From assembly GCA_000934665.2 (NCBI GenBank), contig KZ538006.1, positions 186,001-250,000 on the forward strand: DNA of 64,000 nt, in the 5' to 3' direction. Below are positions 24,816 to 25,999 of this stretch, piece after piece (the first letter of the stretch is position 1; each line of letters starts with the position of its first letter). The notes beneath the pieces are model-generated. The model was not told the DNA's origin. It ran no database searches and worked only from the letters and a program-made list of their open reading frames with translations. A program made the position numbers and the translations under genes. The stretch comes from Catajapyx aquilonaris (lineage: Eukaryota).

Positions 24816-24889
24816 GGCCCGTTAGCTCAGTTGGTTAGAGCGTCGTGCTGATAACGCGAAGGTCGTGGGTTCGACCCCCATGCGGGCCA
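24816..24889 (+). tRNA. tRNA-Ile(GAT), copy 1
   Basis: Full cloverleaf with eukaryotic Ile body. Anticodon loop CTGATAA (GAT at 24850-24852). T5 terminator at 24897-24901. Confidence 0.93.
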
Positions 24890-25925
24890 ACTGCTCTTTT
24901 TCTTTCCATGTCGCAATGGCTGTTCAAATTACTTTTTTTAAAAACTCGTTTGTGCGTGTTAATTCGTAGCTGTTGGCAACAATAATTAGGCAGTAATTCG
25001 GCTTTGCTTTGTTTAAGTTGTGTGAAGTTGAGCCACGTTCGCATGTATGGAGCACAGGGATGGCTTGGGATTTCATATCATGGGAGTGGATGAGTGCCAA
25101 AAATTATTTCATATCTTTATGTACGTAGTTCCGTTTATTTTTCAATTGCTGCATAATGTACTGTGCGTGCAGTACTACAGAATAGAACGCAAAATACGTT
25201 GGAGATAATCGGGACATATATCAAGGCATAATTACATACAAATAAGTCAGATGTATTTTTAAAGGAGCAACTACACTTATAATGGCACTGTAGATCATAT
25301 TAGGTACAAAAGCAAATTACCATCACAATGGGGAAGAAAGCGTCCTTTCAACTATACAGCACCTCAGTTAAAGTTGACCAATTTCTGCTCTTTGTTAAGG
25401 GAGTCGAATTGTACCTAATGTAACATGCGACAAATAAGATGAACTAAAATGCAGAATGATGAGTGTTACATTATTTTGATTGGCCTTGAGTCTTGAGCAT
25501 AATTATGAAGTTTGAAAATTGCATTATCCGTGATGGAATAATTTGTTTCCCAACATTTCCCTATAGTGTCATACATTATTCGAGGAGTCGTCTATAGGGC
25601 CTAGTCTATCAGAAAACAAACTTGACCACTAGATTAGTGCGTTGCCACCGGATGTAATGAGTAACTCATTTCGACCAAAATGTGACTGATCATTTGGGCA
25701 ATACATTCGCACAAGAGTTCATGTCGCCATTATGTGGCATGTAGCCTATATACTGACAGAAAAGAAAACACTGAGAAATTAAGTAACATAATTATTACGC
25801 NCCCCCCCCCAGCTGTTGAGTCATAAGTACTTTGAGTGAAAATCTCTCCGTGGTCGTATAGAGTATTTAAATAATAGTGTTGTTTTCATTGAATGTGCTA
25901 CGAAAGATAGTGCAATATTCATCAA

Positions 25926-25999
25926 GGCCCGTTAGCTCAGTTGGCTAGAGCGTCGTGCTGATAACGCGAAGGTCGTGGGTTCGACCCCCATGAGGGCCA
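25926..25999 (+). tRNA. tRNA-Ile(GAT), copy 2
   Basis: 72/74 identical to copy 1. GAT at 25960-25962. G6:A67 acceptor-stem mismatch. T4 at 26009-26012. Confidence 0.88.

Follow-up and report, generated by a model that had tools for sequence, protein, structure and literature searches.

Two tRNA-Ile(GAT) genes with a eukaryotic Ile-AAT-type body in an animal nuclear contig

Introduction

Can an animal nuclear genome read the isoleucine codons AUU and AUC with a tRNA that carries guanosine at the wobble position (G34), rather than one in which an encoded A34 is deaminated to inosine (I34)? The question is raised by a stretch of 64,000 nucleotides from contig KZ538006.1 of Catajapyx aquilonaris (positions 186,001 to 250,000 of the forward strand; this whole stretch is referred to as the window), in which two genes encode a tRNA-Ile with the anticodon GAT. 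In the published view, GAU is missing in eukaryotes and AUC is read through a tRNA that depends on ADAT2/ADAT3 (PMC8007984; PMC8266599), and reviews describe genomes with A34 as lacking the G34 isoacceptor (PMC8007984; PMC4446420; PMC8266599).

The two genes are most likely working tRNA-Ile(GAU) genes, and would represent another animal case of a known, rare kind. A fuller reading, to which we give about even weight, is that they belong to a multi-copy nuclear family of working tRNA-Ile(GAU) genes, which arose from the ordinary animal tRNA-Ile(AAU) family by an A-to-G change at position 34, and that G34 is the predominant and possibly the sole form of this tRNA body in the genome.

Gene calls and structure

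The features of the two genes, including candidate terminators for RNA polymerase III (Pol III), are listed below.

24816..24889, plus strand: tRNA-Ile(GAT) copy 1 (ARAGORN; Rfam RF00005, 63.4 bits; fold)
24850..24852, plus strand: anticodon GAT of copy 1, G34 at 24850 (ARAGORN, Rfam, sequence)
24897..24901, plus strand: TTTTT, Pol III terminator-like, 8 nt past copy 1 (sequence)
25926..25999, plus strand: tRNA-Ile(GAT) copy 2 (ARAGORN; Rfam RF00005, 55.4 bits with a mismatch flag; fold)
25960..25962, plus strand: anticodon GAT of copy 2, G34 at 25960 (ARAGORN, Rfam, sequence)
26009..26012, plus strand: TTTT, minimal Pol III terminator-like, 10 nt past copy 2 (sequence)

ARAGORN identified three tRNA genes in the window, one Ala(TGC) and two Ile(GAT). 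A scan of the whole window against all of Rfam at the gathering thresholds returned the same three genes, with no other RNA family and no rRNA. Both Ile copies scored well above the RF00005 gathering score of 29 bits, and both programs returned the anticodon GAT, with G at 24850 and 25960, that a first-pass annotation of this DNA had reported. The two tRNA-Ile(GAT) genes were confirmed as real. Sequence comparison also reproduced the spacing and divergence given in that annotation: the copies lie 1110 bp apart from start to start and differ at 2 of 74 positions. The first difference, at linear position 20, is in the D loop (T in copy 1, C in copy 2), and the second, at linear position 68, is in the 3' strand of the acceptor stem (C in copy 1, A in copy 2).

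The cloverleaf of copy 1 is complete, with a 7-bp acceptor stem, a U30-G40 pair in the anticodon stem and discriminator A73. In the cmscan alignment, 21 of 21 pairs were standard or G-U. The anticodon loop reads C32 U33 G34 A35 U36 A37 A38, and t6A is expected at position 37 after U36. A box-A-like sequence, TAGCTCAGTTGG (24823-24834 in copy 1), and a box-B-like sequence, GGTTCGACCCC (24868-24878 in copy 1), are present inside both genes; by the consensus sequences, these correspond to the A and B boxes. Together with the T run downstream, they give both genes the type-2 layout of a Pol III gene. The earlier description of intact boxes and oligo-T terminators was correct as to the boxes and T runs of both genes, but copy 2 is not quite intact, having a mismatch in its acceptor stem. 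None of the three tRNA genes encodes CCA.

The discriminator A73 and the anticodon are strong identity elements of tRNA-Ile, and I34, an analogue of guanosine, is a determinant for the yeast isoleucyl-tRNA synthetase (IleRS) (PMC9976931). The elements named in that article, A73, A35-U36 and a purine-like base at position 34, were all present in the sequence. Neither copy encodes the A34 of an ADAT2/3 substrate. With G34 in the DNA, the tRNA would not be a substrate of ADAT and should not read AUA.

A eukaryotic Ile-AAT body with a switched wobble base

Metagenome contigs were scanned for the 25-nt anticodon arm, allowing A or G at position 34, which gave at least 126 matches on at least 123 stretches. 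Among the matches listed (126 genes with the same arm), A34 was found in 124 and G34 in two. The bodies of these two G34 genes are unrelated to the window gene, with 24 and 29 differences. Of the 74 positions, 3 separate copy 1 from the closest A34 body among the matches listed, and position 34 is one of them. The window genes resemble the eukaryotic cytosolic tRNA-Ile(AAU) in the arm apart from position 34, in A73, in A35-U36 and in U30-G40, and differ from it in encoding G34. The proposal in the first-pass annotation that the body is of the eukaryotic Ile-AAT type, with position 34 switched, agrees with these counts. An ordinary eukaryotic Ile-AAT body with a switched wobble base is, as judged from the genes compared, a rare combination in the DNA searched.

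No flanks like those of the window were identified at the 123 metagenome loci listed, beyond tRNA genes. Sixteen A34 loci were examined for their neighbours: 13 had neighbouring tRNA genes and three had none, and the clusters were unlike the window locus. At four of the 13, the neighbours included ordinary A34 genes (Ala-AGC, Arg-ACG, Pro-AGG). The exact 25-nt arm with G34 was found in no stretch of the viral contigs and in two contigs of the prokaryote genome collection, in bodies with 23 differences.

These two contigs are labelled as bacterial metagenome-assembled genomes (Nitrospirales; Stappiaceae 'chromosome 11'), and their genes lie at L124:274-349 and L125:275-348. Both tRNA-Ile(GAT) genes have T runs downstream, and the 5' part of the L124 gene is itself repeated twice upstream of it. 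Their bodies are unlike a typical bacterial tRNA-Ile, and the contigs could be of eukaryotic origin and assigned to the wrong bins.

The window genes share their anticodon, and the expected decoding of AUC and AUU, with bacterial, archaeal and organellar tRNA-Ile(GAU). Unlike these, they have an unrelated body, no rRNA operon, no encoded CCA and Pol III-type terminators. The eukaryotic-type body, the lack of rRNA in the 64 kb and the animal exons around the genes uphold the original view that they are nuclear, neither bacterial nor mitochondrial, and not a contaminant.

Flanks of the two copies

BLAST of the genes with 300-bp flanks against the window, together with a repeat finder, showed that the copies are alike over the 74-nt gene and approximately 11 nt directly upstream (ATTTCCAACCA in one, ATATTCATCAA in the other) and nowhere else. 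The flanks had been described as unrelated, and indeed there is no likeness further than approximately 11 nt upstream or past the 3' end of the gene. Likeness confined to the gene between unrelated flanks is what upkeep of the gene would give; a recent block duplication or a short interspersed element (SINE) fits less well.

A tRNA-derived SINE or other repeat, or a segmental duplication, was considered separately and ruled out, as no sequence is shared past these limits and the further copies in the contigs have other flanks.

Wobble letter, depth and further copies in read-derived contigs

Of the five sequencing runs that matched an 8-kb stretch, four came from a single sample and the fifth from a different study, and none is recorded as RNA. 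The Logan contigs of three runs from the one sample (X1, X2 and X3) were compared with the window over 24400-26200, with a threshold of 2% for other letters. The run from the other study had no contig over this interval, which is no evidence of absence. In the three runs, no other letter was observed at this threshold in either Ile gene, including at 24850 and 25960, the contigs that span the exact anticodon bases being among 103 pieces outside the itemised set. The same comparison gave a change of A to G at 24578 in the neighbouring Ala gene (U34 to C34 on the tRNA strand) at approximately 3% of the depth, which shows that the method is able to reveal anticodon variants.

Summed contig depth, which is not a measure of copy number, was 607/409/257 (X1/X2/X3) in the bin with the anticodon of copy 1 and 229/271/163 in the bin with that of copy 2. 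The unique flanks had a summed depth of approximately 20-37, so that the Ile gene body stood at 7-18 times its flanks. The loose ends of the contigs pointed to further copies. Two different 5' flanks ending in ...CCAACC enter the Ile gene, and another 3' flank, GCTTTTTTCTTTCC..., carries a T run of its own. At 24840/25950, one contig carries the gene only from approximately position 25 on, GAT included, preceded by unrelated sequence; this copy, located elsewhere in the genome, is 5'-truncated or degenerate. The Ile gene sequence recurs at several more loci, and G was the sole wobble letter seen on it in the contigs of the three runs. The first-pass claim that G34 was kept in at least two loci is borne out by these copies with other flanks.

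On a safe reading, G is at least the better covered form on the local sequence, and an AAT family that is divergent or in the minority may still be present. In this genome, the main form of the tRNA body appears to be G34.

Acceptor stem of copy 2

The contigs that leave each Ile gene in the 3' direction start at an equal gene offset in X1-X3, at 24861 for copy 1 and at 25971 for copy 2. The three contigs over 25971-26200 each hold one other letter that is absent from the variant table. As the table covers only differences away from contig ends, this letter should sit near the contig start. An A unique to copy 2 at 25993 would put the start approximately 8 bases earlier; with the equal offsets and the unlisted letter, the reads may carry the copy-1 letter at 25993. 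If they do, the acceptor mismatch of copy 2 may be an allele or an assembly slip.

A second irregularity was noted upstream. The contigs of X1-X3 join 25677 to 25839 and skip 161 bases, including the only N of the window (25801) and a C run, and in X2 and X3 other contigs cover 25651-25800. The skip reflects either an indel polymorphism or an assembly gap.

Comparison with known G34 tRNAs

G34 had at first been called 'forbidden' and rare in animal nuclei. The rarity stands, but 'forbidden' is an overstatement. In human, tRNA-Ile(GAU) is an expressed, functional tRNA with high similarity to tRNA-Ile(AAU). Several loci transcribe it, including two on chromosome X; a change in its level alters metastatic growth, and its depletion lowers the translation of AUC-rich mRNAs (bioRxiv 10.1101/2021.04.22.440519; 10.64898/2026.10.08.757597). 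Furthermore, Schistosoma mansoni has been reported to have a tRNA-Ile-GAT (PMC2770079), and Maraia and Arimbasseri described large tRNA gene sets as disregarding the sparing of G34 (PMC5372738).

The window genes resemble the human tRNA-Ile(GAU) in carrying G34 on a body close to tRNA-Ile(AAU) at several loci, and would likewise decode AUC without inosine. They differ in that the human form is a small minority, with 3 GAT genes against 14 AAT genes in GtRNAdb, whereas here the contigs held no A34 twin, the G34 body was at high depth, and the host is an arthropod-like protostome. The G34 exceptions in large gene sets (cow, zebrafish and cat; S. mansoni) likewise place G34 in families that normally have A34 (PMC5372738; PMC2770079). 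Those genes, as described there, are additions beside A34 genes and often of doubtful function, whereas the window genes score well and no A34 partner was seen in the contigs. The literature search found no report of a nuclear Ile-GAT in arthropods (mitochondrial matches only, in part); this negative is weak, the supplements and the main comparison of wobble-inosine expansion lying outside the search.

Proposed decoding by the GAU tRNA

In the proposed mechanism, the genes would be transcribed by Pol III from the internal A and B boxes, with a stop at the T run, and end processing would be followed by CCA addition. Charging by IleRS would be expected to rely on A73 and on the anticodon, in which G34 closely resembles the usual I34. 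AUC would then be read by a G-C pair and AUU by a G-U wobble, without deamination by ADAT2/ADAT3, and AUA would be left to the UAU isoacceptor. The remark in the first-pass annotation that such a tRNA makes Ile-TAT essential adds little, because eukaryotes generally keep the UAU isoacceptor for AUA (PMC8007984).

Several points weigh against a working and predominant G34 family. G34 versions of human tRNAs from four-codon boxes were toxic miscoders unless positions 32 and 38 can pair (PMC7293025), and here these positions are C and A, which are unable to pair; a word search of that article found no mention of Ile. The isoleucine codons in the window (ATT 43, ATC 37, ATA 32 in six Pfam-supported frames) showed no preference for ATC, although the count is uninformative, the frames running from stop to stop with non-coding ends included. 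In copy 2, cmscan flagged a G6-A67 mismatch in the acceptor stem beside the U7-G66 wobble, and the minimum-energy fold left 5 acceptor pairs. The contigs have limits as well. X1-X3 may be the assembly's own reads and are not independent proof, and their summed depth cannot be equated with copy number. Position 34 is more than 31 nt from either flank, so that a minority A34 twin could drop out in contig building, and a divergent AAT body might escape the comparison.

Alternative explanations

The alternative that survives best, and that we regard as possible without favouring it, is that the genes work but supply only a minor isoacceptor, as in human, while most of the decoding of AUU and AUC is done by the tRNA of more numerous Ile(AAU) genes, after its deamination to IAU. 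The GAU tRNA would then add some ADAT-independent capacity for AUC, perhaps regulated. This is the sole arrangement documented for an animal, the human tRNA-Ile(GAU) coexisting with tRNA-Ile(AAU) (bioRxiv 10.1101/2021.04.22.440519), and G34 exceptions in large tRNA gene sets are portrayed in reviews as additions at a low level (PMC5372738). The prior is strong, given A34 in 124 of the 126 same-arm genes among the matches listed, and contigs are unable to prove the absence of a minority variant. However, no A at position 34 was found on this body in the contigs of the three runs despite the 7-18-fold depth, and A34 as the better covered branch should give A, not G, in the contigs, if contig building proceeds as we suppose. 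Moreover, since the same 25-nt arm is kept in the AAT genes of very diverse eukaryotes, an AAT family in this genome would probably show in the contigs.

It is improbable that the genes are relics, inactive or nearly so, that derive from an Ile-AAT family, acquired A34G and are unused in translation. Copy 2, with its G6-A67 mismatch, its lower score and a terminator of 4 T only, would suit such a relic, and degenerate copies do exist, as seen from the contig in which unrelated sequence is followed by the 3' part of the gene. Copy 1, in contrast, is flawless, and its 63.4 bits are near the 69.8 bits of the neighbouring Ala gene. The two copies keep 72 of 74 positions at loci with unrelated flanks, which argues against neutral decay, and a very recent duplication would leave matching flanks. 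The same sequence also recurs at high depth with no other letters, and the copy 2 mismatch may be missing from the reads.

A further suggestion concerns the origin only and is compatible with all of the above: an inosine-bearing tRNA-Ile, or its precursor, was reverse-transcribed, and I34 was copied as G into the DNA. Inosine is read as G on sequencing, and I34 already occurs on precursors (PMC4446420). In favour of this route, the one change needed, A34 to G34, is the one found on a body that is otherwise of the AAT type. Nevertheless, we consider it very unlikely, as no encoded CCA, poly-A or clear target-site duplication was found at either gene, and a plain A-to-G transition covers the same data in fewer steps.

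An assembly or sequencing error, or bacterial or organellar contamination, is largely refuted and hardly credible: the N in the window, the 161-bp contig-level skip 125 bp upstream of copy 2 and the juxtaposition of Ile-GAU and Ala-UGC, a pair typical of the 16S-23S spacer in bacteria and plastids, speak for it, but G stands at the same position in two genes with no other letter in the contigs, and exons of animal genes surround them (HROB, FEN1, an M13 peptidase, a ligand-gated channel and an ACK-like kinase that has a CRIB domain). An origin from a bacterial rRNA spacer in particular was rejected: there is no rRNA in the 64 kb, the Ala and Ile genes lie on opposite strands, CCA is not encoded, T runs follow all three genes, and the bodies are of eukaryotic type.

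Extent and significance of the G34 form

If the genes are a minority beside AAT genes, the situation is ordinary, as in human. Well-formed G34 genes for Ile, found here at several loci in an invertebrate, provide an added case outside vertebrates. If G34 is the main or only form, the genome would offer a natural test of why eukaryotes prefer inosine, and would show both whether the toxicity of G34 extends to the Ile box and how far dependence on ADAT can be shed.

The first-pass annotation went further and raised a lineage-wide replacement of inosine-based Ile decoding. That the whole tRNA-Ile(AAU) family was converted to tRNA-Ile(GAU) in this arthropod-like lineage, with AUU and AUC read without wobble inosine, is a tentative proposal that we hold to be doubtful, although the contig evidence mildly favours it. 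If true, this animal would stand outside ADAT2/ADAT3-dependent decoding for one of the eight usual substrates, perhaps as the first step of a wider retreat from I34. The Ala(UGC)-type body of the neighbouring gene, also at very high depth, was raised beside the idea of such a wider retreat.

The neighbouring Ala gene

The third tRNA gene of the window and its T run lie upstream of copy 1.

24539..24610, minus strand: tRNA-Ala(TGC), called by ARAGORN at 24538-24610 (ARAGORN; Rfam, 69.8 bits; sequence; G3-U70 present)
24528..24534, minus strand: run of seven T, 4 nt past the Ala gene (sequence)

The Ala gene is divergent from Ile copy 1, with an upstream spacer of 205 bp between them. In this spacer, palindromes with the sequence TGACGTCA at 24704-24711 and 24760-24767 flank a purine-rich G/A tract. 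The summed depth of the Ala(TGC)-type body was approximately 900-1500 per bin and up to 2579-2873 at single positions, compared with approximately 20-37 in the flanks. Several variants were found in the Ala gene, and at 24565 the letter of the window was in the minority, at approximately 14% of the depth. Either a very large family of Ala(UGC) genes or a repeat derived from tRNA-Ala could account for the high-depth body.

Genomic context

Stop-to-stop frames in the window matched animal families: HROB, the C-terminal part of a tyrosine kinase with a CRIB domain (ACK-like), XPG/FEN1, inositol monophosphatase, an M13 peptidase and a ligand-gated ion channel. For the HROB-like frame, a protein-atlas look-up yielded the family and nothing more specific. 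The guanine-cytosine content of the window was 41.8%, and the ratio of observed to expected CpG was 0.70. The FEN1 exon showed 64-73% identity to arthropods of all subphyla and 65-71% to molluscs, with no close relative. In a tree of this exon, the window had a long branch and grouped with horseshoe crab, scorpion, ticks and spiders, all chelicerates, in a set of 8 rows (Shimodaira-Hasegawa-like approximate likelihood ratio test, SH-aLRT, 97). The DNA would then be that of an arthropod, perhaps one akin to chelicerates. This placement is tentative, as the 43 rows comprised the window and 42 named matches hand-picked from 240 listed, for one gene and a quick search.

An open frame of 596 amino acids (26794-28584, minus strand), located 795 bp from Ile copy 2, matched the Pfam family Lig_chan (E = 5.6e-9). 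It had no relative at E <= 0.001 in a large protein collection, and may encode a divergent ionotropic receptor without introns. At 31890-31967 lies a perfect (TAT)26 microsatellite.

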